This document shows, piece after piece, positions 9,219-40,983 of a stretch of 64,000 nucleotides of DNA (the first letter of the stretch is position 1; each line of letters begins with the position of its first letter). The notes beneath the pieces are model-generated. The model was not told the origin of the DNA, ran no database searches, and worked only from the letters and a program-made list of their open reading frames with translations. The stretch is from contig CAIYET010000770.1 in NCBI GenBank assembly GCA_903925285.1, positions 20,621-84,620 of the forward strand, in the 5' to 3' direction. Origin of the DNA: Candidatus Hydrogenedentota bacterium (GTDB lineage Bacteria > Hydrogenedentota > Hydrogenedentia > Hydrogenedentales > SLHB01). The translations under genes were made by a program, and so were the position numbers.

Positions 9219-10640
9219 ATGAGTAAGGGCAAGGTTTTGATAATCAGCAGCGATGCTGAACTGTCGGAAACCATTGTTCAGGTTTTGGAGCAGGCTGAGT
9301 TCGACGTGGTTGCTGCCGCCAACAAGACGACGGCTCTGGACTTGGCCAAGAGTGACGTTTTCGAACTGGTGGTGGCCAATCTCACCTCACCCGATCATTC
9401 CAGTCTGGGAATACTGAGACATCTTAAGGATTCCTTTCCCACCACCGAAATCATCATGTCCTCCACCAATCCAACCCTGGACTCGGCGATCGCATCGATC
9501 CGGGAAGGCGCGTACGACTATCTCTGGCTGCCTCAGGACTTGACTTGGCTGCCTGAGTCGGCCAGCGGCGCCATCATGCGCCGCCGGAGAAAGATGAAGA
9601 TATTCGCACCGGACGAGGTCGGCGAAACGTCCGAGGACGCGATGGAAAGAACAACGAGTTCCGGCGCGGTGCGCGGCCATGTACCGGATCCAGCCGAAGA
9701 ACTCAGTGCTTCCGTGATGATTGGCGATACCCCATCGATGGTTGCCGCGCGGCAGCTTCTCTTGCAGGTGGCTTCTTCGGATATGACAGTACTGGTGCGG
9801 GGAGAGAGTGGTACGGGGAAAGACGTTGCGGCGAGATTGATTCACCGGGTATCGCCTCGAAACGAGACGGGCACATTCGTCAAGATTACGTGTCCCGCCG
9901 TACCCGAGTCGCTGCTGGAATCCGAATTGTTCGGTTACGAACGCGGGGCTTTCACGGGCGCCGTGGCACAGAAACCCGGCCGGTTCGAATTGGCGGGCAA
10001 AGGGACCATTTTCCTGGACGAAATTGGTTCAATCTCGCTGGCCATGCAAGCCAAACTCCTCGACGTAATCGAGCACAAACAGTTCACCCGTGTCGGGGGC
10101 GTCAAGACGATCACCGTGGATGCGCGCATCATCGCGGCCACCCATTGCCCCCTCGAGGAAATGATAGCGCGCGGGGAGTTCCGAGCCGACTTGTTCTACC
10201 GGCTTGAGCAGTTCACGATTACGCTGCCGCCGCTCCGGGAAAGAACCGAAGACATACTGCGCTTGTGCCGCCATTTCTTACGTTCGCACGCCGCCAAGTA
10301 TGGCTTCAAGCACCGCAAGACTCCGTTTCACATCATGGACCGGCTGGTCCGCTACCCGTGGCCCGGCAACGTCCGTGAGTTGGAGTCCACCATTGCACGG
10401 TTTGCCCTGACCGGTGAAATCGCCACATTCGAAGATGTCATGGAACCGGCCTCGGGCGAATCCCCGGCAAGTGCACCGGTGGCCAGCAAACTGGAAGAAG
10501 TAGAGGTCGCCGCCATCAAGGCTGCTTTGGAAGAGACACGCTGGAACAGACGCAAGGCGGCGGAGAAGCTCGGTATCAGCTACAGTGCCTTGAGGCGAAG
10601 ACTGGCAAAATACGACCTTGAAGGACGTAGTAACTCGTAA
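9219..10640 (+). CDS. Sigma54-dependent enhancer-binding protein (NtrC/PrsR-like): atypical receiver + AAA+ + Fis-type HTH
   Basis: Walker A is GESGTGKDV. The GAFTGA loop (ERGAFTGA) is present. The C-terminal HTH is RWNRRKAAEKLGISYSALRRRL. The receiver has Asn at the position aligned with the phospho-acceptor Asp. Confidence 0.85.
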   Translation: MSKGKVLIISSDAELSETIVQVLEQAEFDVVAAANKTTALDLAKSDVFELVVANLTSPDHSSLGILRHLKDSFPTTEIIMSSTNPTLDSAIASIREGAYDYLWLPQDLTWLPESASGAIMRRRRKMKIFAPDEVGETSEDAMERTTSSGAVRGHVPDPAEELSASVMIGDTPSMVAARQLLLQVASSDMTVLVRGESGTGKDVAARLIHRVSPRNETGTFVKITCPAVPESLLESELFGYERGAFTGAVAQKPGRFELAGKGTIFLDEIGSISLAMQAKLLDVIEHKQFTRVGGVKTITVDARIIAATHCPLEEMIARGEFRADLFYRLEQFTITLPPLRERTEDILRLCRHFLRSHAAKYGFKHRKTPFHIMDRLVRYPWPGNVRELESTIARFALTGEIATFEDVMEPASGESPASAPVASKLEEVEVAAIKAALEETRWNRRKAAEKLGISYSALRRRLAKYDLEGRSNS

Positions 10641-10854
10641 CACTACGAATTCGTTCTATCTCGATAGGGCTTCGGGGTTTTCTTTGACGGGTAAACGAAC
10701 CTTGATCTTGGTGGCCAAGTGTCGGTTTCGACTAATTATTGACCGGCAATAGTTGGCCAAGAAGGCCGCATCACAAGGTTTCGTTGAACGCATCGAAGTG
10801 CGATTTCTCATACAAACCCGCTCGAATTGCAGCGAACTGGACGTGAGTCCTTAT

Positions 10855-10870
10855 TGGCACATAGATTGCT
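10855..10870 (+). promoter_or_regulatory. Sigma54 (-24/-12) promoter
   Basis: TGGCACatagaTTGCt is an exact match to TGGCAC-N5-TTGC. It lies ~50 nt upstream of the ATG at 10919, which is preceded by an AGGAG RBS, and ~215 nt downstream of the sigma54 activator gene. Confidence 0.7.
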
Positions 10871-10918
10871 TATAAATTGGTGCAGTAGTGAAAATGATTC
10901 CTCAACCAGGAGTAGACT

Positions 10919-11323
10919 ATGAGCGAGAATTTCAGGATGTTGAACTGGGCGATCGAACACGAACTTCGATGTTCTCAACGCTACCGGCGTTTCTTGACAG
11001 TTGTCGGTGCGGAATGCCAGGACACGGACACTGGGCTTAAGGGATTGCTCGGCGAGGTACTCCGGGGAAGTGATGAGATCATCGAGTTGGACTCGACGGA
11101 AGTGGCCATCGTCATGGCTGAAACAGACAGGCTGGGCGCGTTGATGGCCATTGACCGGTATCATGCCCGGTTCAATGGCGCCTTCGACATCCGTTTCGGT
11201 GTCGCCACGTTTCCGCTCGATGCCGGCGACCACGAGGCCCTCCTGGGCAGAGCGCGAAGCCGCCTGCTTAAGGCCAAGAAAGGGCAACCCGGCACAGTGA
11301 TCTCGGAGGACGAATCGCAATAG
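10919..11323 (+). CDS. Small stand-alone degenerate GGDEF-like protein (I-site RxxD retained, active site DSTEV)
   Basis: LRGSD-EIIEL-DSTEVAIVMAETD aligns with RxxD-x5-GGDEF-hydrophobic-xxT of diguanylate cyclases. FGVATFPLDAGDHEALLGRARSRLLKAKKG matches the GGDEF C-terminal SiGvA...AD.AlY.AK.G region. An AGGAG RBS and the sigma54 promoter lie upstream. Confidence 0.6.
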   Translation: MSENFRMLNWAIEHELRCSQRYRRFLTVVGAECQDTDTGLKGLLGEVLRGSDEIIELDSTEVAIVMAETDRLGALMAIDRYHARFNGAFDIRFGVATFPLDAGDHEALLGRARSRLLKAKKGQPGTVISEDESQ

Positions 11324-11414
11324 ATCGTCAAGAATGAGTTCTCGTAGTGGTGAGCGGAACGAGTAGGCTCCATTCGATGGAGTTCGGGAAAGCAAGGAAG
11401 CGGAGGGACACATC

Positions 11415-11855
11415 ATGTTGGAAATGCTGCGGAAGTTGACGGTAAAGAAGGCGCCGGGGAATGGAATGGAGACAAAAGGGTTTTTGTCGCAAGATGATTT
11501 CGCCGACCAGCTAATCAAGGAGCGTGCCCGTGCCGATCGTGCCGGCGCTTCTTTCACGCTGCTCGCTTTCGATGTTGAGACGCCACCGGGATTGAACGGC
11601 AAGGCCGAGGCCATGGAGATTCTCGCGTCAATACTCGCGAAGCGGGCGCGCGTCACCGATACCAAGGGTTGGTTCGGTAACCGCTTGGGCATCATCCTAC
11701 CGAACACGCCGACCGAAAACGCCGACAATGTCGTTCGACCCATTCAGGAACAGTTCAAAAAGACCGTCGTTTCCAATTCGCCACACGCGTCTAAAGCACC
11801 CAAGATTGCTTATCAGGCATATGAGTATCCGAATAATGAAATAGTAAATGTGTAG
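11415..11855 (+). CDS. Second small degenerate GGDEF-like protein (I-site RxxD retained, active site GNRLG)
   Basis: GFLSQDDFADQLIKERARADRAGASFTLLAFDVE matches the GGDEF N-terminal block. RVTD-TKGWF-GNRLGIILPNTPTENA aligns with RxxD-x5-GGDEF-xxxxPxT. The start codon is uncertain (Met1, Met4 or Met18). Confidence 0.6.
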   Translation: MLEMLRKLTVKKAPGNGMETKGFLSQDDFADQLIKERARADRAGASFTLLAFDVETPPGLNGKAEAMEILASILAKRARVTDTKGWFGNRLGIILPNTPTENADNVVRPIQEQFKKTVVSNSPHASKAPKIAYQAYEYPNNEIVNV

Positions 11856-11922
11856 GGATGTAGATAACCCTCGCGAAGCAAGACGGCTGGCGCCGGTTGC
11901 CTAGGGGAAAGGGGAGTCTAAA

Positions 11923-12777
11923 ATGGCTACGGAGCATGATAAAATGTATACTATCGTAAATTCCCATCCCGGAACGAACGGGAAGAACGGGCGGGTAAGG
12001 TACGTTGCGGAGAGTCGAGAAGCTTCGACCGTTATGAGTCAGCCATCGGAACTATGCTTTGGGCGTCGGATTCCCTTGTGGAAGCGTGCCTTTGACATCA
12101 TCGGTTCCGGGGTGGGCTTATTCCTGCTTTCACCGCTTTTCCTACTCATCGCCCTTTACATCAAGATCGTGTCGCCCGGCCCCGTGTTCTTTAAGCAGAA
12201 CCGGATTGGCTGGTCAGGGAAAGAATTCACCATGTGGAAGTTCCGCTCGATGCGCCCCGATGCGGATTCCTCCGTCCATCGTCAACACATGGCCAAACTC
12301 ATCCAGAACAGTACCGATCCCAGTGATAAGCGCTCCGTGCAGGTCTTGACGAAAATCGCGAACGATCCCCGAATCATCCCATTTGGTGTGATCTTTCGTA
12401 AGTCGTGTTTGGATGAACTGCCCCAACTGATTAACGTGTTCCTCGGCTGCATGACCTTGGTTGGTCCCCGCCCCGCCATCCCCTATGAGGTCGAAAAGTA
12501 CATGCACTGGCACAAGGAACGCTTTGACACGGTCCCCGGCATGACCGGGCTGTGGCAAGTGAGTGGAAAGAACAAACTCTCGTTCAAGGAAATGGTGCGC
12601 TTGGACATCCGATATGTACGGGAGAGGTCGCCGTGGTTGGACATCAAGATCCTCCTTAAGACCCCGCCGGCCATTATCATCCAGGTGCGAGAGAATTGGC
12701 TAGTCAGGCAACGCAACAGCCGCGTTGAAGCGGCAGGAAAAGCACGCGCGCGGACTACTGCAAAGATCAACGAATAA
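11923..12777 (+). CDS. Polyprenyl-phosphate sugar-phosphate transferase (small WbaP/EpsL-type priming enzyme)
   Basis: KRAFDIIGSGVGLFLLSPLFLLIALYIKIVSPGPVFFKQNRIG..GKEFTMWKFRSM, DELPQLINVFLGCMTLVGPRP and PGMTGLWQVSG are bacterial sugar-transferase signatures. Confidence 0.85.
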   Translation: MATEHDKMYTIVNSHPGTNGKNGRVRYVAESREASTVMSQPSELCFGRRIPLWKRAFDIIGSGVGLFLLSPLFLLIALYIKIVSPGPVFFKQNRIGWSGKEFTMWKFRSMRPDADSSVHRQHMAKLIQNSTDPSDKRSVQVLTKIANDPRIIPFGVIFRKSCLDELPQLINVFLGCMTLVGPRPAIPYEVEKYMHWHKERFDTVPGMTGLWQVSGKNKLSFKEMVRLDIRYVRERSPWLDIKILLKTPPAIIIQVRENWLVRQRNSRVEAAGKARARTTAKINE

Positions 12778-12805
12778 TGTCTGCTTTTCCAGAAGGGTAG
12801 TCTAA

Positions 12806-15800
12806 ATGAAACGGAGAGGTTCTTCTCTTCTTTTAGATGTTGTGTCCTTATTACTTCTTGTCGGCGGTCTATATCACTCTCCGGCGTACGCCTATGCCAG
12901 TCCCGAGTCGACTTCGTTATCCGCTGATACACGGGCGGTTAAGCTGGATGCGTCGACTGTAATTCATATCCAGCCCGAGGGCGATCTTGACCCAAACTGG
13001 TCGTATGAATGGTCGGTCGATCGAGGCGAAATCGACGAGATTTCGGGCAACACAACCGCAATCTACACGGCTACAGCCGACCTGGATCCGGGGTGGGACA
13101 CCGTAACCGCGACGATCTGGGACAACTCGCCTCCGGGTCCGCCAATCCTTGTGGCAACGCGTACTATCGTGCTTCTCGTTTTCAAGCAGTTCATCATTCT
13201 CAAGGCAGACGATTGGCAACGCTGGGAATGGGCTCCGCCCGGCGCAAGTCCCAACTGGACGTATTACATGAACTATTGCATCAATGTGAAGCATATCAAG
13301 ACGTCCGCCGGCATCATGAACTTCTCCCTGGATCCGGACTACCCGGAGCCCCAACCCGCGCCCCCCGATCCCCCTATTAACTATTATCTTGCCGACTTCA
13401 TCGCCTACACCCAATCGCTCCATAACACGGGATATGTCGAGTTCTGGAATCACGGACAGACTCATATTTGCGACCCGTATGAATTCCAGGGTTCCTCGTA
13501 TGCGTTTCAGGCCGAGCATCTCGCGTACGGCCAAACCCAATCGCTGGCATTGCTTGGATTTACCTACACGGCATTCGGCGCGCCCTGTAACGCCATCGAC
13601 GACACGACTACCGCAGTCATTAATGACGCGCCAGACATCAAGGTGTGGCTCTTCGGTCTCCCCGAATCGACGAAGATGGTCCTTGAAAATGGCAACGGAG
13701 AGATTGAACCAGGCGACGTCGGCGTACCGAGTTATCTGGGTTTTCTCGCAGGGTATGACGCCGAGGCCGATTACGTCGTGCTGCAGCACCATCCCGCTTT
13801 CGAGGAATTCAGAAGCAACTTTGGCGAGTTCAATCTGATCATCGAGTACCTGCTCGACCAAAAGGCCACGTTCATCAAGCCCACCGAGTACTACCGCCTG
13901 ATCCACGACGGCATATTGCCGCTTGATCCTCAAGGCGACGTGCCGCCCTATATCACAACCCAGCCGGTGTCGCAGACGGTCAACCCTCATGACGACGTCA
14001 CGTTCACGGTGGAAAACACCGGCTCATTGCCCCTGGCCTATCAATGGAAAAAGGAAGGCGAAGAAATCCCAGACGCCACCACCGCGACCTACATAATTTC
14101 AGCCGCGACGGAAGCCGATGAAGGAGACTATGTATGTATAGCGACGAATCCGGCGGGAAGCGCCATATCCGATCCCGTCGCGTCGCTTAGCGTGAATGAC
14201 CCGCCGGAAATCGGCGAAGATCCCGTGTCACAGTCCGTGGACCCCGGCGATTCCGTGACATTCTCCGTGACGGTCACGGGCGCCCCGCCCTTGAGCTACG
14301 CATGGAGCAAAGACTACGGCGAGCCAATATCCGGCGCGACGGACGCTTCTTACTCGATAGATCACGCGACCCAAGACGATGAAGGCGAGTATGTCTGTTT
14401 TGTCAGCAATGAAGCGGGCATGATTCTCAACGACAATGAAACGTCCAATCCTGGGATGTTATGGGTGAACGATCCGCCGACGGTCACCGAGTCGCCCGTG
14501 TCTCAAACGAAAAACTTCGGCGACGTGCCGCAATTCTCGGTCGTCGTTACAGGCACCATACCCCTTTCTTTCCAATGGCGAAAGGGCGGTGTCGCCATCG
14601 AAGATGCAACGGATACGATACTGACCCTTCCCGCCGTGGCTAACGTCAACGAGGGGAGCTACGACTGCGTGGCGACCAACAGCGCCGGAACGGATACCTC
14701 TGCGTCGGCCACATTGACGGTTCAAGATCCCATCATTTTCACCCAGCCTGAAAACGTTCAAGTACTCGCGGGCGGTACGGCACACTTCAATGTCGTTGCC
14801 GGTGGCACTGGCAGCCTCTTATACAAATGGTTTCAAGGCGAAAGCCCGTTGAGCGATGGGGGCGATATTGGCGGCTCGGCGACCCCGAACCTTCAGATTG
14901 CAAACGTGACGAATCCCAATCCGGTTGAATACCACTGCGATGTAACCGGCGAGGATGGAACGATCGTCTCCGCCACGGCAACCCTCGAGGCAACCGACCC
15001 CGCCATTGCCACTCAACCCATTTCCCTTACGCGGAACCCCTCTGAAGAGGCTACGTTTTCGGTGGTTGCCATGGGGACCAGTCCGTTCACCTACCAGTGG
15101 CTCAAGAACGCCGAGAATGTACAGGGCGCTACCGAGGCGTCCTACACAATCCCGGGCGTCACAGAAGGCGACGAAGGGGAATACCGCTGCCTGATTTCCA
15201 ACAGCGTCAGTCCAGCCGGTATCCGGTCGAATCCGGCAGCCTTGGTCGTGAACGACCCGCCCATCATTACGACGCACCCCGTATCGCAGTCCGTCGATCC
15301 GACGGATCCCGTTACGTTCGCCGTGACCGCCACCGGCACGGCTCCGTTAAGCTACGAGTGGCGGAAAAACACGGTATTGATTCCCGGGGCGACCCGGTCT
15401 TCGTATTCCATCGCCGCCACCGTCCCAAATGACGCAGGCCAATATACTTGCTATGTAACTAATCAAGCGGGAATCATCTCGGCCCAAAACAAGCTGTCGG
15501 ACCCAGGCGTCCTGACGGTGAATGCGCCACCCGCCATTAGCGCCCAGCCACAGAGTGCAACAAAGAATCCGGGCGAGTCTGCAACATTCGGCATCACGGC
15601 AACCGGCGCCGCCCCTTTACAATATCAGTGGCGGAAAAACGGCAGCGAAATGCCCGGCAAGACCCTGTCCTCGCTTGGCTTCGCATCGGTAGCCGAAACC
15701 GACCAGGCGGCCTACACCTGCTACGTCAGGAACTCCGCGGGGGACAAGACCAACGCGAACGTCGAGTCCGCCCCGGCCGTGCTGACAGTGACCGACCCGC

Positions 15801-17770
15801 CCACGATTACCCGGCAGCCGGCTTCTCAGACCATCGCACCTGGGCTCTCCGTCACGTTTTCGATCGCCGCGACCGGTACATTGCCTTTCTCGTACCAGTG
15901 GAAGAAAGGTGTCCAGGATATCTCCAACGCGACGAACGCTCAGTACAGCATCGCTCATGTGTCGCAAACCGACCAGGGGCTTTATTCCTGTCATATCGCC
16001 AATTGCGCGGGAAGCGCGTTGTCGGATCAGGCCACGCTGACGGTTTTCGAGGCTGTCAAGATCGTCACCCAACCCGTTTCGGAGTCCGTGAACTATGGCG
16101 TACCCGCACAGTTCAGCGTCTCTGTCACCGGCGCGCCGCTCATCGATTTTCAGTGGCGAAGGGGAGGCGTGCCACTGGCAAACACCGGCAGGATTTCTGG
16201 CGCAGACGCGGCAACACTGCATATCGCCGCCAGCGTGAACGTGGATGAAGGCAGTTACACCTGCCGCGTCAGCAATCAGTTCGGCGCCATGACATCCTAT
16301 TCCGCGGTGCTGACGGTAAACGATCCTGCGATCGTCTCGCAGCCCCAAGGGGCGCAGGTACTGGTTGGCGGTACCGCCATGTTCTCGACGGAAGCCGTGG
16401 GCAGTGCGTTGACGTATCGGTGGTATAAAGGGGCCTCCCCATTAAGCGACGGCTCCAATATCAGCGGTTCAAGCGCGGCCACGTTGGCCGTAAGCAATTG
16501 CACCGGAGCGGACGAAGGCGCTTATCATTGTGTGGTTGGTGGCAGACCAGACCCGTCCGTGATTTCGGCAGACGCCGAACTCGATGTGGGCGATCCGGCC
16601 ATTCTCACTCAGCCGCAGTCCCAAACCGTAGATCCCGGCGTTGGGGTTACCTTCTCCATCCAGGCAGGGGGTACGCCTACATTCAGCTATCTGTGGCACA
16701 AGAATGGAATTAACATCGAAGGAGCGACGAACGACGTTTTCGTTATTGCTTCCGTCGCAGAAACCGACGAAGGCGCCTATAGCTGCCGCGTCACAAGTCC
16801 CGTTCGGCCCCTCGGAATCGAGTCGGACGAAGCAGGCCTGATCGTGAATGACCCGCCCGTCCTCGAGGGTGCGTTTGTCGACCCGCCCGGTGGACAAATC
16901 CATGCGATGAACTCCGCCAGTCTGACCGTGGGAATCTTGGGCGGTACGGCGCCCTTCTCGTACCAGTGGAAAAAGGACGGCAACAATGTCGATGACAATG
17001 GCCGGATTACGGGCAGTCGGACGGCAGCGCTTGCCGTCAATTCGGCGGTACAGGACGATGAAGGGGTTTATACCTGCGTTGTGACGAACTCGGCAGGCAG
17101 CAACACCTCCGACGCGGTTCATTTGATTGTCGGCGACCTGCTGGACTTCATCCGGCGGTTGGAGGATCAGAAAGAATACGTGGGCAAGGAAGTGCGCTTC
17201 ACGGTCCAGGTGATCGGCGGCCGTGGGACGATCGAATATGCGTGGAAGTTCCAAGGTGCGCGCAAGACGGCGATGCCGGTGGGCGCCAATTTGTCCACCT
17301 TAACGATACCCCAGGTAGCGCTGGCGGATGCCGGTTTATACTGGTGCGACGTGACGGACCAGCGGGGAACGCATCCCTCGAATCAAGCGGCACTCCAAGT
17401 GGCGTCTTCTTCCTTGGAGATCATCCAGGATCCGAGCGGCGGGCAGGGCACGTTAGGTTCACGGTACGAGTTCACCGTAGCGACGCGTGGCGGTTTCCTG
17501 CCCCTAACATACGAATGGCGCAAGGGTGACGTGCCGATTTCTTCCGCCACCACCTCAACGTTCACGATTCCGTCACTCCAAGATACGGATGCGGGAATCT
17601 ACACGGTCATCGTTTCGGACAGCGATTTCCATGTGTGTCAATCGAACACGGCCATTCTCGAAGTGATATCGGGCTTGTCGGTCGGCGGCCTTGCAGGTCT
17701 CTTACTGTTGACAACCATGCTTGCATTGGCCAGCACAGTCGTCTTGCGGAAATTTTTTCATATGATATAG
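12806..17770 (+). CDS. Giant surface protein, paralog 1: signal peptide, small beta-sandwich, CE4/DUF2334-like head (DD and H-x3-H present), 14 I-set-type Ig repeats, C-terminal TM anchor
   Basis: A signal peptide is present. The head carries ILKADDW...FWNHGQTH. There are 14 repeats of ~90 aa carrying [YF]xW[KR]K...DxGxYxC...N. The protein ends with a hydrophobic helix plus RK. Confidence 0.8.
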   Translation: MKRRGSSLLLDVVSLLLLVGGLYHSPAYAYASPESTSLSADTRAVKLDASTVIHIQPEGDLDPNWSYEWSVDRGEIDEISGNTTAIYTATADLDPGWDTVTATIWDNSPPGPPILVATRTIVLLVFKQFIILKADDWQRWEWAPPGASPNWTYYMNYCINVKHIKTSAGIMNFSLDPDYPEPQPAPPDPPINYYLADFIAYTQSLHNTGYVEFWNHGQTHICDPYEFQGSSYAFQAEHLAYGQTQSLALLGFTYTAFGAPCNAIDDTTTAVINDAPDIKVWLFGLPESTKMVLENGNGEIEPGDVGVPSYLGFLAGYDAEADYVVLQHHPAFEEFRSNFGEFNLIIEYLLDQKATFIKPTEYYRLIHDGILPLDPQGDVPPYITTQPVSQTVNPHDDVTFTVENTGSLPLAYQWKKEGEEIPDATTATYIISAATEADEGDYVCIATNPAGSAISDPVASLSVNDPPEIGEDPVSQSVDPGDSVTFSVTVTGAPPLSYAWSKDYGEPISGATDASYSIDHATQDDEGEYVCFVSNEAGMILNDNETSNPGMLWVNDPPTVTESPVSQTKNFGDVPQFSVVVTGTIPLSFQWRKGGVAIEDATDTILTLPAVANVNEGSYDCVATNSAGTDTSASATLTVQDPIIFTQPENVQVLAGGTAHFNVVAGGTGSLLYKWFQGESPLSDGGDIGGSATPNLQIANVTNPNPVEYHCDVTGEDGTIVSATATLEATDPAIATQPISLTRNPSEEATFSVVAMGTSPFTYQWLKNAENVQGATEASYTIPGVTEGDEGEYRCLISNSVSPAGIRSNPAALVVNDPPIITTHPVSQSVDPTDPVTFAVTATGTAPLSYEWRKNTVLIPGATRSSYSIAATVPNDAGQYTCYVTNQAGIISAQNKLSDPGVLTVNAPPAISAQPQSATKNPGESATFGITATGAAPLQYQWRKNGSEMPGKTLSSLGFASVAETDQAAYTCYVRNSAGDKTNANVESAPAVLTVTDPPTITRQPASQTIAPGLSVTFSIAATGTLPFSYQWKKGVQDISNATNAQYSIAHVSQTDQGLYSCHIANCAGSALSDQATLTVFEAVKIVTQPVSESVNYGVPAQFSVSVTGAPLIDFQWRRGGVPLANTGRISGADAATLHIAASVNVDEGSYTCRVSNQFGAMTSYSAVLTVNDPAIVSQPQGAQVLVGGTAMFSTEAVGSALTYRWYKGASPLSDGSNISGSSAATLAVSNCTGADEGAYHCVVGGRPDPSVISADAELDVGDPAILTQPQSQTVDPGVGVTFSIQAGGTPTFSYLWHKNGINIEGATNDVFVIASVAETDEGAYSCRVTSPVRPLGIESDEAGLIVNDPPVLEGAFVDPPGGQIHAMNSASLTVGILGGTAPFSYQWKKDGNNVDDNGRITGSRTAALAVNSAVQDDEGVYTCVVTNSAGSNTSDAVHLIVGDLLDFIRRLEDQKEYVGKEVRFTVQVIGGRGTIEYAWKFQGARKTAMPVGANLSTLTIPQVALADAGLYWCDVTDQRGTHPSNQAALQVASSSLEIIQDPSGGQGTLGSRYEFTVATRGGFLPLTYEWRKGDVPISSATTSTFTIPSLQDTDAGIYTVIVSDSDFHVCQSNTAILEVISGLSVGGLAGLLLLTTMLALASTVVLRKFFHMI

Positions 17771-17797
17771 TTTCTTAGCGTAGTAGAAGGGATCCCG

Positions 17798-20700
17798 ATG
17801 AGAGCCAATTGGACAAGGGAAATACTGAAATTCAAGAGGAAGGTTCTGGCTGGCTTCATACTGGCCATGGTTCTGGCGGCGCCGGGTTACGCCTTTGTCG
17901 ACCCCGAAACCATCTCCCTGTCAGCCGACTCCAAATCGGTCCGTTTGAACGAGACGACCATCATTCGTATTAACGAGACCGACTTGGACCCGCAGTGGAC
18001 CTATCAGTGGAGTGCCGTGAGGGGGGCGGTCGTCGCGAACCCCAATCCCCTCGCCCCCCATACGGCCATTTACACGGCGACGGCGGGATTGGATCCGGGA
18101 GAGGATGTTATCACGGTCGCGATCTACGATAACACCCCGCGGCTTCTTGCAACACGAACAGCCGTCGTTCTGGTTTTCAAGCAATTCATCGTCCTGAAAG
18201 CCGGCACGTGGGGCGTTATCACCACTAACTGGCAGTACTATTTTCAGCAGCTCCTCGATCTCCACATCAAGACGGCCGTTGCCATAATAACGCATTTCAT
18301 CGACCCGCTTTATTCCGGGTATGCCGGCCCTGCGTTTGTCACGTACACGAAAGCCAGACATGACAGTGGTTATGTCGAGTTCTGGAATAACGGGTATGAC
18401 TTCTCGAACGGTGCAGGTCCGCCAGCCTGGTGGGAATTCAGGGGAACGACCTACGGCTCTCAAAAGACACACCTCGAGGCCGGGCAGACGCTCGCCAACA
18501 CCACGTTGGGGTTTCCGTTCACGGCATTCGGCGCTCCCTACAACCAGTTGGATACAACCACCACTACGGTCGTCAACGAATCCCCCGAATTGCGGGTATG
18601 GCTATTCGGCGCAGCTACCGGCTCCACCAAAATGGTACTGACCCACGCTAACGGCGAGATAGAACAAACGACTGGACTGCCGAGTTTTACCTATTTCATG
18701 AGTACCTATAGCGCCACGCCCCGGTACGTCGTCCTCCAACACAATCCGGGCATGAATTCCTTCTACACCAACTTCCAACAGTTCAGGGACATCCTTAACT
18801 ACCTTATCGCCCAGAAGGTCACGTTTATCCTACCCACCGAGTATTGCCGCTTGATCCAGGACGGGATCCTCCCGTCAAACCCGGGCCGGACACCTTTCTT
18901 CATGGTGCAGCCAACCTCGCAGACGGTTAACCCGACGCAGAAAATCACCTTGACCGCTACGGCCTTGGGTACACAGCCCATCTCCTACCAGTGGAAAAAG
19001 GGCGGGACTAACGTTTCCGATGCGACGACCGATACGCTCATCATCACCGCTGCCGGACAATCGGACGAAGGCAGCTACCTATGCACGGCGACAAATATCC
19101 ACGGGAGTACGGATTCCAATCCAGCGACTTTGGCGGTCGACGATCCGCCGACGATTACCACCCAACCATTGTCCCAAACCCTGGATCCCGGCGTTTCGGT
19201 GACATTCACGGTCGAAGCGACTGGGACGGCCCCGTTGAGTTACGAGTGGCGAAAAGACAATTCGACCATTCCCGATGCCACGGATCCATCCTACACAATT
19301 TATCCCGTGGCCGAGTCGGATGAGGGCGCATACGCCTGTTACGTCAGCAATGCGGCCGGCAGCCAGGCCAGCCAGAACGTACTTTCCAACTCGGCGTTTT
19401 TTTCGGTGAACAACCCCGCTTACGTCATTGCCGACCCGGTGTCGGCCACTACGGACTACGGACTTTCGGCAACGTTTTACGTGATGGCAGGGGGGACTCC
19501 GCCCATCAGCTATCAGTGGCGCAGGAATGGCATCGGCATCGGCGCCGCCACCGACACGGAATACGCGATCGACAACTGCTCGAACGCCGAAGAGGACAAC
19601 TATGACTGCGTAGTGACAAACAGCGCAGGAGGCAGCGCCTCCGCAGCCGCTCGATTGGCCGTCAACGATCCTATTATCATCGGACAGCCGGAGGATGCGC
19701 AAGCGCTCGCGATGTCGACGGTGCACTTCACGGTCACTGCGGCTGGCAGCGGCGAGATCGCCTACCAATGGTTCAAAGAAACGACGGTGCTCGAGGACGC
19801 CGGAAAGATCAGCGGCGCCACCTCGCGAATCCTCCAAATCGAGGGTGTAACGGACTCCGATCAAGGGGTCTATCACTGCGCAGTCACCGGAGGCGATCCT
19901 ACGATTGTGACCCGCGACGCCCTTTTGGAGATCAGCGACCCTGCGTTTACAACGGAACCTCTGTCGCAGACCGTGAATCCCACCGATTCGGTGACCTTCT
20001 CCATCCGGGCGGTGGGTACGCCGCCATTCAGCTATCAGTGGCGGGATACGAACGGAATCGACATCGAAGGAGCGACGAGTGAGGATTTCGTTATTCCATC
20101 CGTTGCAGAAACCGACGAAGGCGCCTATAGCTGCCTCGTCACAAGTCACGTCCGGCCCTTGGGCTTCGAGTCGGCTCAGGCAGGCCTGGTCGTGAACGAC
20201 CCGCCCCTGATCGAAACGCAGCCCGAGTCGAAATCGGTCGATCCCACCGATCTCGTCGTGTTTAGCGTAGTGGCCACGGGCACGGATCCCTTGAGTTACG
20301 AGTGGCGCATAGGCGGCGTGCCGATTCCCGGCGCTACACGCGCAACCTATACCATTGTCTCCGCGCAGCAATCCGACGCGGGGCCGTACACCTGCTATGT
20401 GGCCAACGAGGCTGGCACGGTGTCCGGTCACAACACGACATCCGGCCCGGCTGTCCTGTATCTCTACGGTTTGCCGACCATTACGGTCCCGCCCATAAGT
20501 CAGACGGTGGATCCGAACCATCTCGTGACATTCAGCGTTGTGGCGGCAAGTGAAACGCCAATGAGCTATCAGTGGCGCCTGAACGATCTCAACATTCCAG
20601 ACATGACCGAGTCGACGTTGAGCATTCCGCTTGTCCAGGAGAGCGACGAAGGCGACTATACTTGCGTTGTCGGCAATTCCGCCGGAGACAAGACGAATAC

Positions 20701-22744
20701 GAATACGATATCCGCCCCAGCGACGCTGACGGTCAATGATCCCCCCGTCATCGTCGTTCAACCCGAGTCGCAACTCATCGCACCGGAATATGAAGTGTCT
20801 TTCTCGGTAACGATTACCGGTACGCCGCCTTTCAGCTTCCAATGGAGGAAAGGTGCGACTACTATCGGTGAAGAGACCGCTGACTCCTACACGAGTTCCT
20901 ACACCATTGCATCCGTGGCATCGAGCGACGCTGGCGTCTACTACTGTCACGTTAGGAACAGCGCGGGGCAGGTTACTTCCGATGGTGCGACGCTGAGGGT
21001 TCTGGAACCGGCAAGGATTGTGACCCAACCGGTCTCGCAGGAACTCAACTATGGGACAGCGGTGGAGTTTTACGTACAGGCGGACGGAATGTTACCGCTC
21101 TATTACGAGTGGAGAAAGAATGGCATTGCGCTCGTGGACGGCGGTAGGGTGTTGGGCGTTTCCGAGGCCCGGCTGAGCATCGAGGCTGCCGAAAACGGAG
21201 ATGAAGGCGATTACACCTGCTACGTTATCAACGATTTTGGCGGCATCGAATCGGCGGCCGCCACGCTGATTGTCCATGATCCCGCCATCACCGCGCAGCC
21301 TCAGCACCAAAGTGTGATGGGCGGCCACACGGCGCAGTTCTCGATAGGCGCGGTCGGCAGCAACCCTGTTTACAGGTGGTACAAGAACGGCCTGGCGTTA
21401 AGCGATACCGGCAGCATCGGCGGCTCGTCCACAGCCGTATTGAATGTCGACAACTGCCAAGTCGCCGACGAAGGCGTCTATCGCTGCACGGTCGCCGGCG
21501 GACCGGATGCGGATGTAACCTCGCAAGACGCAACACTCGCGATCGACGACCCCGCCGTCATTACACAACCGCAATCACAGACGGTTGACCCGGACGATAC
21601 AGTGACGTTCGCATTGGAGGTCGATCTCGATAGCTCCACGCCCATCACCTTTCAGTGGCGCAAAGACGGCAATGATATCCAGGACGCGAGCGGTGGTGTA
21701 ACGATCGGTCTCCCGATCACGTACGTCATCGCCAACGCGGCAGAGACGGACGAAGGCAGTTATACCTGCCTGCTCCGCGGGTTCGAGGACGTTGTCTCCA
21801 ACGCCGCGACGTTGAGCGTCAACGACGTTCCCGTTATTTCGGGCGTGGACGTGGACCCGCCGGACGCCCGGATCCAACTATCGAGCTCGGCCAGTTTCAC
21901 CGTTCAGTTGTCTGGCGGGACGGAGCCAATCTCGTACGAGTGGAAGAAAGATGGGATCGTCCTTACCGAGAGCGACCACGTCTCGGGTGTTTCGCAGCGG
22001 ACGCTGATCGTTAATCCCGCGCAACAGCAGGATGAAGGCCGCTATACGTGTGCCGTCTACAATTCCGCGGGCAGGGCGGTGTCTTCGGAGGTATATCTGA
22101 TTGTCGGCGAGATCCGTGCTTTTACGCAGCAGCCCTTAACCGAGCAAAAGAAATACATTGGCCAAGCGGTGCAGTTCGAGGTCGAGACCGTGGGGGGCCG
22201 CGGAACGCCTCACTACGCTTGGACATTCGACGAACGGCAAAAAACCACACAACCCGTGGGTGACGATTCACCCCTGCTGGTTTTCACGGTCACGCAGGCA
22301 AAGGCCGGCGCGTATAGGTGCGGCGTAACCGATGAGCGGGACACCTATTACTCGAATACGTCCACACTGGACGTTGCGTCGCCACTCGAGATACTCCAAC
22401 AACCACGAGGAGGTCTTGTGGCCGAAGGTTCCCTGCACACCTTTGCCGTGCAAACAAGCGGTGGATTCTTACCATTGGCTTATGAATGGCACAAGTACGA
22501 TGTCCCCACGGTTCTTGGAACGAACGTAACGTTGACGCTCGACCCCCTTCAAACGAGTGATTCCGGATCCTACTATGTCATTGTGTCAGACGCCATCAGC
22601 AGCGTCGAATCCAACACCGCTCCCTTGTTCGTCGGCACAAACGTTCCCGCAGCGGGCTTTGTGGCCTTGGGACTGTTGGCAGGAATATGCACCTTGGTTG
22701 GCGCGCTCACACTCGGTTCGAGGGGGCGTTCCACGTTTCCGTAA
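17798..22744 (+). CDS. Giant surface protein, paralog 2: same architecture, 14 Ig repeats, head motifs substituted (GT and N-x3-F)
   Basis: Collinear with paralog 1. For example, repeat 4 has WF[QK], repeat 10 has YRWYK and repeat 13 has YAW in both. The C-terminus is VPAAGFVALGLLAGICTLVGALTLGSRGR. Confidence 0.8.
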   Translation: MRANWTREILKFKRKVLAGFILAMVLAAPGYAFVDPETISLSADSKSVRLNETTIIRINETDLDPQWTYQWSAVRGAVVANPNPLAPHTAIYTATAGLDPGEDVITVAIYDNTPRLLATRTAVVLVFKQFIVLKAGTWGVITTNWQYYFQQLLDLHIKTAVAIITHFIDPLYSGYAGPAFVTYTKARHDSGYVEFWNNGYDFSNGAGPPAWWEFRGTTYGSQKTHLEAGQTLANTTLGFPFTAFGAPYNQLDTTTTTVVNESPELRVWLFGAATGSTKMVLTHANGEIEQTTGLPSFTYFMSTYSATPRYVVLQHNPGMNSFYTNFQQFRDILNYLIAQKVTFILPTEYCRLIQDGILPSNPGRTPFFMVQPTSQTVNPTQKITLTATALGTQPISYQWKKGGTNVSDATTDTLIITAAGQSDEGSYLCTATNIHGSTDSNPATLAVDDPPTITTQPLSQTLDPGVSVTFTVEATGTAPLSYEWRKDNSTIPDATDPSYTIYPVAESDEGAYACYVSNAAGSQASQNVLSNSAFFSVNNPAYVIADPVSATTDYGLSATFYVMAGGTPPISYQWRRNGIGIGAATDTEYAIDNCSNAEEDNYDCVVTNSAGGSASAAARLAVNDPIIIGQPEDAQALAMSTVHFTVTAAGSGEIAYQWFKETTVLEDAGKISGATSRILQIEGVTDSDQGVYHCAVTGGDPTIVTRDALLEISDPAFTTEPLSQTVNPTDSVTFSIRAVGTPPFSYQWRDTNGIDIEGATSEDFVIPSVAETDEGAYSCLVTSHVRPLGFESAQAGLVVNDPPLIETQPESKSVDPTDLVVFSVVATGTDPLSYEWRIGGVPIPGATRATYTIVSAQQSDAGPYTCYVANEAGTVSGHNTTSGPAVLYLYGLPTITVPPISQTVDPNHLVTFSVVAASETPMSYQWRLNDLNIPDMTESTLSIPLVQESDEGDYTCVVGNSAGDKTNTNTISAPATLTVNDPPVIVVQPESQLIAPEYEVSFSVTITGTPPFSFQWRKGATTIGEETADSYTSSYTIASVASSDAGVYYCHVRNSAGQVTSDGATLRVLEPARIVTQPVSQELNYGTAVEFYVQADGMLPLYYEWRKNGIALVDGGRVLGVSEARLSIEAAENGDEGDYTCYVINDFGGIESAAATLIVHDPAITAQPQHQSVMGGHTAQFSIGAVGSNPVYRWYKNGLALSDTGSIGGSSTAVLNVDNCQVADEGVYRCTVAGGPDADVTSQDATLAIDDPAVITQPQSQTVDPDDTVTFALEVDLDSSTPITFQWRKDGNDIQDASGGVTIGLPITYVIANAAETDEGSYTCLLRGFEDVVSNAATLSVNDVPVISGVDVDPPDARIQLSSSASFTVQLSGGTEPISYEWKKDGIVLTESDHVSGVSQRTLIVNPAQQQDEGRYTCAVYNSAGRAVSSEVYLIVGEIRAFTQQPLTEQKKYIGQAVQFEVETVGGRGTPHYAWTFDERQKTTQPVGDDSPLLVFTVTQAKAGAYRCGVTDERDTYYSNTSTLDVASPLEILQQPRGGLVAEGSLHTFAVQTSGGFLPLAYEWHKYDVPTVLGTNVTLTLDPLQTSDSGSYYVIVSDAISSVESNTAPLFVGTNVPAAGFVALGLLAGICTLVGALTLGSRGRSTFP

Positions 22745-22753
22745 GTCCAAACG

Positions 22754-24916
22754 TTACGGACAACGCCTCTTGAAGCATCCTGCCGTGGACGCGGCCAACA
22801 TGAACGCTAGGAGTATCAGTGCGGAGACGCTGGCCGCTGGTAGCGGAACCAGGTTTACGACAAGAGTCACCGTATCCGACGTGACTGAGGCTTCTGTTTC
22901 ATCGGCCACCACGACCGCGTAGTCGCCTTGGTTCTCGATTGAGACTGAATCCATGACCAGCGCCGCCTCGGTAGCGTCCAAAATCAGGTTGCCGTCTTTG
23001 TACCATTGATACGACAACACCCCGACTCCGCCCGTTGCCTGGATGAAGAACGTAAAGGATTCTCCCGCGTTGGCCTGACCGCTTTTCGGTTGAAGTAAAA
23101 TCGTTAGAGGAGCCAGGTTTACGACAAGAGTCACCGTATCCGATGTGACTGAGGCGTGTGTTTCATCGGTCACCACGACCGCGTAGTCGCCTTGGTCTTC
23201 GATTGAGACTGAATCCATGACCAGCGCCGCTTCGGTAGCGTCCAAAAGCAGGCTGCCGTCTTTGTACCATTGATACGACAACACCCCGATTCCGCCCGTT
23301 GCCTGGGTAAAGAACGTAAAGGATTCTCCTGCGTTGGTCTGACCGCTTATTGGCTGAAGTGAAATCGCCAGAGGTTCGAAGAACTCGTAGGCGCCAATAT
23401 CGGGTCCAATACCCTGGGGTATCGGAATAGCGTCGAAATCGAATAGAATCCCCGCGTCGGTACCGGCATCTATGCAGGGGGAGGCCACTTGCAGATGGTA
23501 GTCGCGAAGCGCGGCGTTTGCAAACAAGGGATCCCCGCCGACGGCGTGGGTGTCGAATCCGGAGGCCGTGCTGTAGCCGGTCAAAGTCTGGTAGGTCGTC
23601 GAACCAACCTGAATGGCATCCGAACCGAGCGGCATGTGCAACCAGCAATTGTAGTCGATCACCTTGTTGGTTGCGCTTGCCATCTTCAATACCGGACTCC
23701 AAGTTGGTACGGAATTCGTCATGCCGATGTTGTTCTTCAACGTCGTGTTACACGTTCCATCATCAAGATAGAAGTTGTACTGCCTGCAATTCGTAACGGT
23801 GTTGTTGTAAATCTGGGAGTTCACCAGCGTTGTGCCCGACAGGAATAGTCCGTTCCACGTTAGATCATAAACCACGTTGCCGTACACCTTGGGGTTCATC
23901 AGGTTGGGCCAGCTACTATCCGTTATCAAAACGATGCCGTTAATATTCTCGGTGAATCCCGGCGTGGCGTATACGGTGTTGTACCGGACGATGTTGCCGG
24001 TCGGGCTTGAAGGGCCACCCTTTATGTCAATGCAATGATGATGGGCATTGTATGAAATGCACTTCTCGACGATCGCGTTTGAACAGTCGATCACATTGAT
24101 GTTGTTGCCGCCGGATTCATAGACGACGCATTGTGTGACCAAGTGGTTGTAGCCCGAGATCATGGAAAGTCCCATTTTGTCGATGGCATTATGGGACGGT
24201 GGATCAAGACGCCCAGCATGATGCAGCACAACATCGCGAATAATCCAGTTGTCATTTGTCGGAAAAACAAATAAGGTCTGATGATTGGCATTCTTCAACT
24301 CGAGACTCTCGATCGTGATGTAGTCCGAGTTCCCGTTCCACACTCCCTGGACACAATAATCACGGGCGGCCACCTGGATATCCCCTGGAAGCGAAATCGA
24401 ATATACATACAGAATATCCAATGTCCAATACCAACTGCCGCTCGCAGCTAATTCAACTACCGAGCCCATGTGGACACCACGCTCTCCGTCAAAAAAGACC
24501 AAATCGGGCGTTGGGGCTTTCTCTATCGGCGTCCACGGAAGGTTTGCCCGCCAAATGTGTGAGCCTGACGCCGTCTCGGTCCATCCTGTGACTGGGTCGG
24601 AACCGGTTATTATCGGGCGATTCCCATCGCCGTAGGCGCCAAACACGATCCGTGAAGAAGCGTTGCCACTCGTTGCGTTGACGAGAAGTGTCTCACGCCA
24701 AGTTCCTCCCCGCTTGAAGAGAATGGAGTCTCCCGGAAGAAAATGGGATATATCGACCTTGTGAATGGTTTTCCACGCATCGGCGTCCGACAATCCGTTC
24801 CAACTGTCATTACCCCCAACGGAATCGACGTAAAACAGCCTGGCGTCGGCTGTCAGACAAGGCACAATCCCTAACAGGAAGACAACCCACGCCCAAGATG
24901 ATTGATTCTTCTTCAT
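22754..24916 (-). CDS. Secreted right-handed beta-helix (pectate-lyase/NosD-like) protein with two Ig repeats and PEP-CTERM-like tail
   Basis: The signal peptide is MKKNQSSWAWVVFLLGIVPCLTADA. RLFYVDSVGGNDSWNGLS..AWKTIHK and serial N-rich beta-helix rungs follow. Two 88-aa Ig repeats are present. The tail is VPLPAASVSALILLAFMLAASTAGCFKRR. I chose the start at Met14 of the listed ORF. Confidence 0.7.
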   Translation of the reverse strand: MKKNQSSWAWVVFLLGIVPCLTADARLFYVDSVGGNDSWNGLSDADAWKTIHKVDISHFLPGDSILFKRGGTWRETLLVNATSGNASSRIVFGAYGDGNRPIITGSDPVTGWTETASGSHIWRANLPWTPIEKAPTPDLVFFDGERGVHMGSVVELAASGSWYWTLDILYVYSISLPGDIQVAARDYCVQGVWNGNSDYITIESLELKNANHQTLFVFPTNDNWIIRDVVLHHAGRLDPPSHNAIDKMGLSMISGYNHLVTQCVVYESGGNNINVIDCSNAIVEKCISYNAHHHCIDIKGGPSSPTGNIVRYNTVYATPGFTENINGIVLITDSSWPNLMNPKVYGNVVYDLTWNGLFLSGTTLVNSQIYNNTVTNCRQYNFYLDDGTCNTTLKNNIGMTNSVPTWSPVLKMASATNKVIDYNCWLHMPLGSDAIQVGSTTYQTLTGYSTASGFDTHAVGGDPLFANAALRDYHLQVASPCIDAGTDAGILFDFDAIPIPQGIGPDIGAYEFFEPLAISLQPISGQTNAGESFTFFTQATGGIGVLSYQWYKDGSLLLDATEAALVMDSVSIEDQGDYAVVVTDETHASVTSDTVTLVVNLAPLTILLQPKSGQANAGESFTFFIQATGGVGVLSYQWYKDGNLILDATEAALVMDSVSIENQGDYAVVVADETEASVTSDTVTLVVNLVPLPAASVSALILLAFMLAASTAGCFKRRCP
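22851..23378. repeat. Near-identical tandem duplication, 2 x 264 bp (88 codons), inside the beta-helix gene
   Basis: The unit starting aggtttacgacaagagtcaccgtatccga occurs at 22851 and again at 23115. The encoded repeats differ at ~10 of 88 residues. Confidence 0.85.
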
Positions 24917-25557
24917 CGGAATCCAACGCAACGTCAACTTAACGAGTTTTGTCAAAGTTAGCTGGATAAATTCTATCCGTATTCTCCCTTTCTTGTCAAT
25001 AAACGCTTACAGGAATGTCTTATCCGGTCAAGAAACGGCGGCTTCTGGTGTTGGGTCCACAATACGTGCTGTCATCCTTGGCCGTGTGTTGAATTTGGCC
25101 ATTTATGGCGTTGCGAAATTCGTTCAGAATTATCACTTCTATGCGCTTTTCCTCTTCAGATTCCGCGATGTGGTCGCCAAACACGCGATTTGGACGCAAG
25201 AACGTAACGAGCCGCGATTGAACGGTTGCTGGAACCGGCGGCTGGCAAAGGCCGGATAATGCACGGATCGGGAACCCAGCGGCTTAGCCCAAGGTCGGCT
25301 GTTCGTCAGGAATAAAATGCAACGATTCGTCGTTAGCCCCACAACCGTTTGGACCCGCTCATGGCTGATCCCGTTCCAGCTTCCAGGAACAACCTGAAAT
25401 GCGATGCAAGCACGTGCAATGATCCTTGCGTTCCGCTTCGTGCATAATCGCACCATGTCGTGCTATATTCGCTCAGCAACCGATCGCAGCAATCGCGGGA
25501 TGATGCCGTGTGTGCGTTTTGGGAGGCCCATCCCAAGAACGCCGTTCTGGAGGGGGC

Positions 25558-37137: not shown

Positions 37138-40983
<3,846 letters not shown>

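Follow-up and report, generated by a model that had tools for sequence, protein, structure and literature searches.

A sigma-54 activator, two degenerate GGDEF proteins and a short phosphoglycosyl transferase in a recurrent Wzx/Wzy exopolysaccharide locus type

Genes and conserved units of the locus

The DNA analysed here, called the window throughout, is a 64,000-nucleotide stretch of contig CAIYET010000770.1 from a Candidatus Hydrogenedentota bacterium. It contains the regulatory and surface-decoration section of a recurrent Wzx/Wzy exopolysaccharide (EPS) locus type of uncultured bacteria. That section comprises the gene of an NtrC-family activator, a sigma-54 promoter, the genes of two small proteins that we call A and B, a short phosphoglycosyl transferase gene, two giant surface protein genes, and one more surface protein gene that converges on them from the other strand (Table 1). 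A preliminary description, made from the sequence letters, had taken 9219-24955 as one dedicated regulatory and structural unit. As drawn, and as a unit that is conserved, this is not supported, because distant loci vary in what stands behind A and the convergent gene has a promoter of its own. What is conserved is two smaller units, (i) the activator, the sigma-54 promoter and A, and (ii) B and the short, putatively priming, transferase; the giants are accessory. The placement of the module within an EPS locus stands, with Wzx, Wzy, GT2 and other genes upstream and their orthologues in related loci.

The five same-strand open reading frames (ORFs) from A to giant 2 span 10919-22744 as first reported and are separated by 91, 67, 28 and 27 nt. 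There is no terminator-like hairpin in any of these gaps, and the five genes presumably form a single transcript. Both small ORFs are real genes, and a 311-aa antisense ORF at 10808-11743 is discarded as their shadow, since A and B lie 5 kb apart in the related locus L017. A Joint Genome Institute contig from a close relative has a partial gene, a 279-nt gap, A, a 91-nt gap, B and the transferase in the same order and spacing. The expectation of a conserved gene order is therefore borne out for close relatives but not for distant loci, where the order splits into an activator-A pair and a B-transferase pair. In the window, the two pairs are brought together back to back, and its biosynthetic block sits upstream of the activator, not behind A; orthologues of most of the upstream EPS genes occur in L017, L023 and L024. 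Taken as a whole, we read the locus as activator-A and B-transferase modules with cyclic di-GMP (c-di-GMP) sensing, combined with deacetylation at the surface, and we give this reading a probability of about 0.5.

Table 1. Positions of the features discussed, in window coordinates.
Feature	Position	Strand	Remarks
Upstream EPS part	6-8920	+	AAA ATPase (cut by window edge), tyrosine-kinase-like, CE4 deacetylase, FemAB-like, GFO/IDH, Wzx, Wzy, GT2
NtrC-family activator gene	9219-10640	+	473 aa; ORF list, Pfam
Terminator-like hairpin and T-run	10658-10678	+	just past activator stop; weak
Candidate activator-binding region	10712-10761	+	tentative; two TGGCCAAG copies and CAATAGTTG
Sigma-54 (-24/-12) promoter TGGCAC-N5-TTGC, TGGCACATAGATTGC	10855-10869	+	consensus match, conserved in orthologous loci
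Small protein A gene	10919-11323	+	134 aa; profile comparison to GGDEF fold
Small protein B gene	11415-11855	+	146 aa; profile comparison to GGDEF fold
Short phosphoglycosyl transferase gene	11923-12777	+	284 aa; Bac_transf
Giant surface protein 1 gene	12806-17770	+	1654 aa
Giant surface protein 2 gene	17798-22744	+	1648 aa
Convergent surface protein gene	22754-24916	-	720 aa from ATG
Sigma-70-like promoter TTGACA-18-TAGAAT of convergent gene	24970-24999	-	consensus match, 11/12

The activator, its promoter and small protein A

The activator had been described as a receiver, an AAA+ domain with GAFTGA and a Fis-type helix-turn-helix (HTH), and Pfam agrees, matching Response_reg (40 bits), Sigma54_activat (214 bits), AAA_lid_14 and HTH_8 (56 bits). 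GAFTGA, the Walker A sequence GESGTGK and the Walker B DE are all found, and the AAA+ sigma-54 interaction domain with a DNA-binding HTH makes the protein an NtrC-family enhancer-binding protein. Alignment to Aquifex NtrC1 (1ny5/4l4u) finds S-S at the acidic pair E-D, Asn54 at the phospho-acceptor Asp, and Leu at the Lys of the "TKP" sequence. With all three features replaced, the receiver is a pseudo-receiver, as had been suspected, and the window activator lacks the residues that define a two-component response regulator. The orthologous activators upstream of A, which are 58% (L017), 48% (L019) and 46% (L023) identical to it, retain the phospho-acceptor Asp, so the pseudo-receiver is specific to the window lineage.

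The sigma-54 promoter TGGCACATAGATTGC is positioned 215 nt past the activator stop and 49 nt ahead of the ATG of A. It is the sole exact match to TGGCAC-N5-TTGC in the 64 kb, where 0.2 are expected and 20 of 100 shuffles gave one, and it is also the sole 11/11 extended match in the window and the sole such site in intergenic DNA. Taken alone, without the other loci, the match would be suggestive. Chance becomes very unlikely because TGGCAY-N5-TTGC recurs ahead of the A orthologues in L001, L003, L017 and L019, in the form TGGCAT in the last three; L023 has the weaker TGGTAT-N5-ATGC at this place. The site thus combines GG-N10-GC spacing, the TGGCAC/TTGC consensus, a position upstream of a gene and conservation among orthologues, and it is the last of these that upholds the sigma-54 wiring originally proposed. 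The metagenome contigs L001 and L002 are otherwise identical and differ in the -24 element, TGGCAC versus TGTCAC (L002 ~214; window 10855-10860); the difference reflects a polymorphism that kills the promoter or else a mistake in assembly. The window has no further sigma-54 sites or CAATAGTTG copies that would hint at a wider local regulon, and no rpoN gene within its 64 kb.

About 100-145 bp upstream of the promoter is a region that we nominate, tentatively, for activator binding. It has copies of TGGCCAAG at 10712-10719 and 10754-10761, spaced by 42 bp, and CAATAGTTG at 10747-10755. In either orientation, no 9-mer other than CAATAGTTG is common to the regions ahead of A in the window, L017 and L019; CAATAGTTG lies 108-210 bp upstream of the promoter across these three and has one exact copy in the window, and by our own estimate the probability of sharing it by chance is about 0.004. 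The close relatives L001 and L002 have two substitutions within CAATAGTTG, and for that reason it is put forward as a candidate only. The total of terminator-like sites in the region, where one such hairpin follows the activator, is no higher than in shuffles.

Neither A nor B of the window reaches a Pfam or NCBIfam threshold, and no family in these two libraries covers them. Word-based searches found three close homologues of each, suggesting that family A was very rare, an impression corrected by an exhaustive HMMER search with the A alignment. With clustering at 50% identity, that search gives at least 326 clusters at E ≤ 1 × 10−3 and 158 at E ≤ 1 × 10−10, mostly stand-alone proteins of 120-170 aa. 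A profile of 101 A sequences scores E = 4.5 × 10−9 against Protein Data Bank (PDB) ID: 6d9m and 1.8 × 10−7 against 3ign, and the top 22 matches are all GGDEF proteins. The match covers the entire domain, with about 15 residues of the substrate/metal loop (DxFKxxND..GH) deleted. Pfam GGDEF gives weak matches in 12 of the 101 members, with P0176 above the cut-off. The GG[DE]EF motif is absent from A, which has ELDSTE in its place and is not a cyclase.

The conservation within family A is concentrated elsewhere. Arg21, Asp52, Arg80 and Pro99 are present in all 101 sequences and Arg49 in 100, and the former active-site positions 56-61 are variable across the family. In alignment with solved cyclases, Arg49-x-x-Asp52 falls on the RxxD inhibitory site (I-site) and Arg80 on the Arg of the "ERIR" helix; in both A and B the RxxD is five or six residues ahead of the former GGDEF motif. 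We take Arg49, Asp52 and Arg80 to be the equivalents of PleD R359, D362 and R390 in our numbering, which form the primary c-di-GMP-binding I-site. This pattern is the signature expected of a domain retained for ligand binding, not catalysis, and A is probably to be seen as a candidate receptor for c-di-GMP with a link to the activator. The view of A as a portable sensor module tied to DNA binding is supported by three fusions: an A-A tandem (P0033), an HATPase_c_2-A protein of the anti-sigma-factor-kinase type (P0091), and a stand-alone HTH_8-A protein (P0110; L026:337-1110), in which HTH_8 scores 38 bits and which has 336 nt of non-coding DNA upstream. A degenerate DNA pattern for the A motif had 11 genome matches, all of which the family hidden Markov model (HMM) identifies as chance. 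Scans for related loci in genome contigs (alignment A2) and in metagenome contigs (A3, then A2) found nothing.

Of the five loci with enough flanking sequence, four (the window, L017, L019 and L023) have the activator at a distance of 0.3-1.3 kb upstream of A. L017 has TGGCAT-N5-TTGCT 50 nt ahead of A (46% identical to A of the window), followed by Wza, Wzz, an AAA ATPase, a tyrosine-kinase-like protein, B (46%), the short transferase, a CE4 deacetylase, FemAB, GFO/IDH and Wzx. The layout of L023 is the same, with a canonical receiver in the activator and ATGCT in the second half of its weaker promoter element. L019 has TGGCAT-N5-TTGCC, A (46%), three unknown genes and a secretin, with B absent. 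Export genes (Wza, Wzz, ATPase) thus stand behind A in L017 and L023, and unknowns with a secretin in L019, and because these genes differ among loci, the activator is the constant partner of A. The activator, its sigma-54 promoter and A are a conserved cassette with varying output genes. As a separate observation, the cassette in L019 (L019:10496-16268) heads unknowns of 317, 329 and 551 aa, the secretin and a 119-aa protein, none of them EPS genes, and this operon encodes a secretin-based system, as yet uncharacterised, that shares the control.

The same operons could be read in another way, with A acting on the product of the next gene, such as export or secretion machinery (Wza/Wzc, the secretin), and not on the activator. 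A heads operons with Wza/Wzz in L017 and L023 and with a secretin in L019, and secretion and export machines are commonly controlled by c-di-GMP at the post-translational level. We regard this as quite improbable, given that the window has no export gene behind A, that the genes behind A vary while the activator and promoter are constant, and that the HTH_8-A fusion points to a DNA-linked function.

Small protein B, the short transferase and the surface proteins

A profile of six B sequences matches PDB ID: 3ign with E = 2.9 × 10−11 and 5euh with 4.1 × 10−9. The N-terminal half of the GGDEF domain is largely absent, as it is in A. The RxxD of B aligns to the I-site, and FGNRL (within WFGNRL) stands in place of GGDEF, so B is not a cyclase either. 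The RxxD and the next Gly-Trp are invariant in the six orthologues, which are 28-88% identical, with the variants RVTD, RLTD, RISD, RITD and RLSD. Neither a direct BLASTP comparison of A with B nor hhalign on shallow alignments gives a match, but hhalign with the deep A profile aligns them at E = 9.5 × 10−5, which makes them distant paralogues. The identification of the two small ORFs as degenerate GGDEF proteins with only the I-site left is therefore sustained by the deep profiles matching GGDEF structures; the profile-HMM check advised for it came out mixed, with both ORFs below the Pfam threshold and the family profiles nonetheless finding the fold. A and B represent undescribed but recurrent families, probably sensing c-di-GMP.

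The same remnants of a GGDEF domain might have another use, with A and B as ligand-blind adaptors or scaffolds in which the Arg and Asp serve protein contacts, or as receptors of GTP, pGpG or cyclic GMP-AMP. There are known examples of degenerate GGDEF domains working by protein contacts, both A and B are without much of the N-terminal half of the domain, and the structure model of A has low confidence. Since the invariant residues of A align exactly with the c-di-GMP-contacting I-site and the former active-site positions drift, we think this unlikely and continue with c-di-GMP as the proposed ligand.

The short transferase scores 206.8 bits against Bac_transf (PF02397), for which the cut-off is 27. 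It has the catalytic domain only, and falls below the cut-off of the full-length TIGR03025 model because the N-terminal membrane domain is absent; from its family, it is predicted to be the priming enzyme. Small monotopic phosphoglycosyl transferases (PglC-like; PF02397) resemble it in consisting of a catalytic domain and one N-terminal hydrophobic helix with a Ser-Pro, but the window enzyme differs from them in having about 50 extra N-terminal residues and, in three loci, a degenerate GGDEF gene directly ahead. These three are the window, L017 and L023, where the transferases of the latter two are 62% and 42% identical to that of the window and the gaps to B are 67, 24 and 12 nt, respectively. 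The B-transferase pair is thereby found in three of the four loci having B. Elsewhere in the window, there is a second, full-length phosphoglycosyl transferase of 450 aa at 29679-31034 (minus strand), scoring 330 bits on TIGR03025, above the cut-off, and adjoining a small TPR protein (the two together at 29017-31034). This brings the number of priming enzymes in the EPS locus to two, of which the short one alone is behind the sigma-54 promoter.

In L017 and L023, B and the short transferase are encoded about 5 kb beyond A, from which it follows that the window order is derived. One might then suppose a recent rearrangement in which the five genes are not one sigma-54 transcript, and the transferase and the giants have promoters of their own. 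Sigma-70-like sites do occur ahead of the transferase, at 11810-11837 and 11897-11924, but they match only 9/12 and are no better than shuffles, and the four gaps are free of terminator-like hairpins. Moreover, the intervening genes in L017 and L023 are on the same strand and tightly spaced, so that B and the transferase are probably in the same long operon there too. Separate transcription of the five genes consequently seems improbable to us. Both pairs, often accompanied by DUF2334-Ig and beta-helix-Ig proteins, belong to the recurrent EPS locus type.

The giants are 48% identical paralogues with 14 Ig_3/I-set stretches each. Giant 1 starts with a signal peptide, a beta-sandwich and a CE4/DUF2334 head, continues with 14 immunoglobulin (Ig) domains, and closes with a hydrophobic C-terminal anchor that has a basic tail. 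Homologues of the head, which is taken as the first 375 residues, carry PF10096 (DUF2334) and PF01522, and the best of them is from a metagenome-assembled genome (MAG) labelled "FCB group bacterium". A model of the head based on 20 sequences, with a predicted local distance difference test (pLDDT) score of 90.8, has a beta-sandwich and then an alpha/beta domain. Foldseek finds CE4 esterases and deacetylases 7ax7 (E = 2.8 × 10−9), 2c71, 4hd5, 7fbw and PdaC, as well as the pseudoenzyme BA3943, with target template modeling scores of 0.75-0.81 for 7ax7, 2c71 and 7fbw, and 0.45 for 4hd5. The model and the matches identify a NodB fold, and they confirm, along with the homologue domains, the DUF2334/deacetylase head that had been proposed for the giants.

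The head family conserves Asp135-Asp136, His216, His220 and His329, which we take to be the residues of CE4 motifs 1, 2 and 5. Giant 1 has them in the motifs KADD, HGQTH and QHHP, and the head homologues of L004 and L005 keep KADD, W[NC]HGxxH and LQHHP. The head of giant 2 (17798-18892) reads KAGT, WNNGYDF and LQHNP, with four of the five conserved catalytic/metal residues lost. Giant 1 and the 18 other homologues all retain them, and giant 2 is alone in their loss. Retention in the one and loss in the other indicate one probable enzyme and one pseudoenzyme: the giant 1 head is a probable active deacetylase, and the giant 2 head is predicted to be non-catalytic, possibly a glycan-binding pseudoenzyme. 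In the NodB fold, the Asp-Asp, His-x3-His and His motifs, and its place in an EPS locus, giant 1 is like the CE4/NodB exopolysaccharide deacetylases IcaB, PgaB, PelA and Agd3 (PMC6307706, PMC7229062), and giant 2 is like the CE4 pseudoenzyme BA3943 (PDB ID: 7bkf) in being without the motifs. The difference from known CE4 enzymes is that the window head is of the DUF2334 branch, set behind a beta-sandwich and displayed on 14 I-set-like Ig domains with a C-terminal anchor. Genes with a DUF2334 head and Ig domains are again in tandem in L005:676-3736, where an Asp-rich TSP3/dockerin-like linker joins the head to the Ig part, and one is located behind a Pect-lyase beta-helix gene in L004:2902-6496, echoing the beta-helix neighbor in the window.

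That neighbor, the convergent protein, has a signal peptide, a right-handed beta-helix, a choice-of-anchor Q domain, two Ig domains and a C-terminal anchor, and its gene ends 9 nt from giant 2. The sharing of an Ig module with the giants was correctly noted, the identity to their Ig domains being 30-41%. The convergent gene is outside the sigma-54 unit, since it is preceded by its own sigma-70-like promoter. Its two Ig repeats (22826-23350, minus strand) are identical to each other at 74 of 87 positions, which points to a recent internal duplication. The similarity claimed for its C-terminal anchor to those of the giants applies to the architecture and not to the sequence: the C-termini of the three proteins have no common motif and match no NCBIfam sorting-signal model at E up to 10. 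A fourth window protein that, like these three, ends in a hydrophobic segment and a basic tail is the 1281-aa surface protein at 37138-40983 (plus strand), which contains I-set, CARDB, a DUF1565 beta-helix, PKD, TSP3 and CarboxypepD_reg domains and a (Gly-Glu)n linker.

An activator of this kind next to anchored surface proteins recalls the PEP-CTERM/exosortase systems with PrsK-PrsR-PrsT (PMC1569441; Aquincola pepA/rpoN1, PMC9850573). There, too, an NtrC-type activator and a -24/-12 promoter drive C-terminally anchored proteins in an EPS locus, and the neighbors shared with the window are an export protein, a chain-length protein, an ATPase, a tyrosine kinase, a sugar transferase, a deacetylase and FemAB. 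The window might accordingly be a diverged XrtA/PEP-CTERM system, with the activator as the PrsR ortholog, the giants as exosortase substrates, and A and B as peripheral passengers. In its favor, a sigma-54 motif ahead of anchored surface proteins in EPS loci is the published pattern (PMC1569441, PMC9850573), the activator scores 306 bits on TIGR02915, the neighbors match the TIGR03015 ATPase, TIGR03018 tyrosine kinase, TIGR03019 FemAB, TIGR03013 sugar transferase and TPR protein PrsT, and the four window proteins have the hydrophobic segment and basic tail. The scores, however, are far under the curated cut-offs (306 for TIGR02915 vs 502.6, and for the others 69 vs 324.5, 50 vs 230.7, 33 vs 260 and 40 vs 312), the C-termini match no PEP-CTERM model even at E = 10, no exosortase is recognised in the 64-kb window, and there is no PrsK beside the activator, the sole histidine kinase of the window being 45 kb away. 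The receiver is not phosphorylatable, and A and B are the most constant neighbors of the activator and transferase and hence not passengers.

Strict PEP-CTERM membership is rejected on the sub-cut-off scores and the missing motifs, and descent from such a system in the broader sense of a diverged relative is in our opinion rather unlikely. With those scores, and no PEP-CTERM motif, exosortase or adjacent kinase in the 64-kb window, the locus is better called a distant cousin than a member. A further difference lies in what the promoter serves: in the window it would be a multi-gene operon that opens with two mini-GGDEF genes and a priming transferase, and in the published pattern it is single PEP-CTERM genes. 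The statement that this combination of genes is not a described system is accordingly right to the extent that we find no paper describing the combination, and wrong to the extent that the general paradigm has been described as PEP-CTERM/PrsKRT.

Proposed c-di-GMP control and the rest of the window

How the parts might work together can be put as follows. The activator would bind upstream and open the sigma-54 promoter, with a receiver that, in the window lineage, would not be phosphorylatable. A would bind c-di-GMP at its I-site and modulate the activator, and since A is made from a promoter under control of that activator, a feedback loop is proposed. B would bind c-di-GMP and gate the priming transferase, so that polymer initiation would need both transcription and a high level of the second messenger. 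At the cell surface, an active giant 1 would deacetylate the polymer, and giant 2 and the beta-helix protein would bind or trim it, holding the matrix to the cell. We infer the c-di-GMP sensing and the assignment of partners, A to the activator and B to the transferase, from alignments and gene neighborhoods. A more ambitious version, a two-tier c-di-GMP checkpoint in which A is a trans-acting sensor subunit of sigma-54 activators with feedback and B an allosteric gate on monotopic phosphoglycosyl transferases, is speculative, and we think it rather unlikely. To our knowledge, the B gate, if true, would be the first second-messenger control of the Wzx/Wzy priming step.

Several observations weigh against the reading of the locus that we favor. 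The informative neighborhoods number five (window, L017, L019, L023, L024) against at least 326 family-A clusters. In one of the five, L024 (NCBI MAG GCA_052033955.1), the genes run Wzx, Wzy, GT2, ..., GT4, A, B, deacetylase and FemAB, after which come those of a 1477-aa beta-helix/Ig protein and of a 1377-aa DUF2334/I-set giant, so that A and B are behind a glycosyltransferase, the activator is absent within 8 kb, the sigma-54 motif is absent, and B precedes the deacetylase and not a transferase. The fully canonical receiver in L023 implies that A is not merely a substitute for phosphorylation. The Arg of B that matches Arg80 of A is not conserved. The structure model of A, built from four sequences, has a pLDDT of 56, and Foldseek finds weak matches to it, headed by a GGDEF protein and including PII-like ferredoxin folds; with so poor a model, the fold assignment of A relies on the profiles. 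The weak sigma-70-like sites ahead of the transferase make internal promoters possible. Finally, neither a diguanylate cyclase nor a sorting enzyme is seen within the 64-kb window.

Where c-di-GMP is known to control exopolysaccharides, it acts on machines of the synthase-dependent kind (cellulose, alginate, Pel, PNAG (poly-N-acetylglucosamine)) or directly on transcription factors. On the machine side, precedents for a degenerate GGDEF I-site receptor required for EPS synthesis are PelD of the Pseudomonas Pel system (PMC2170427) and PssE of Listeria (PMC4125290). Like A and B, they have a dead GGDEF domain with RxxD and are encoded in an EPS operon. In PelD and PssE, the dead domain licenses polymer synthesis, and for A and B c-di-GMP binding is a candidate function read from sequence. 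PelD has transmembrane and GAF domains and belongs to a synthase-dependent pathway, whereas A and B belong to a Wzx/Wzy locus and are truncated domains of 130-170 aa that stand alone; also unlike PelD and PssE, A is tied to a sigma-54 activator and B to a phosphoglycosyl transferase. On the transcription side, FleQ, VpsR, EpsI/Nla24 (PMC4877007) and BerB (PMC9684580) are sigma-54-family activators that control EPS genes by c-di-GMP, as is proposed here; EpsI/Nla24, for one, binds c-di-GMP and has eps genes under its control as a sigma-54 activator (PMC4877007). In these the nucleotide binds the activator itself, but in the window it would bind a separate I-site protein, presumably the first gene product of the regulated operon.

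If the binding is true, it would make A and B a new class of small receptor and the priming step a new point of control, and hundreds of hypothetical proteins in uncultured, apparently PVC-like (Planctomycetes-Verrucomicrobia-Chlamydiae) bacteria would receive an annotation. The pairing of a probably active with a probably inactive deacetylase, both on Ig stalks of 14 domains, suggests modification of matrix polymers that are kept away from the cell, a point of relevance to the formation of flocs and biofilms. Deacetylation renders PNAG, Pel and galactosaminogalactan adhesive (PMC6307706), and in floc formers a sigma-54-dependent anchored protein raises cell-bound EPS (PMC9850573).

Among the other genes of the window, the GFO/IDH/MocA oxidoreductase of the upstream EPS part (4098-5114, plus strand; 338 aa) shares 68% identity with its positional counterpart in L017, and the longest ORF there, of 377 aa at 4065-5198 on the minus strand, is rejected as its antisense shadow. 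Between the convergent gene and a GalE-like epimerase, 25510-26916 (plus strand) encodes a 468-aa polytopic membrane protein without a Pfam or NCBIfam match, which could be an unrecognised polymerase, ligase or sorting enzyme. The window has no tRNA or Rfam element. Farther along on the minus strand are a DUF1559/N-methyl prepilin-like protein (50589-51599), a 1246-aa GH2 beta-galactosidase with a Laminin_G_3 insert (51746-55486) and an FGE-sulfatase-domain protein (61957-63678), a set typical of the PVC group and the one taxonomic pointer that the window offers. With its DUF1559/N_methyl proteins, FGE-sulfatase and many Ig/PKD surface proteins, the gene content looks PVC-like.

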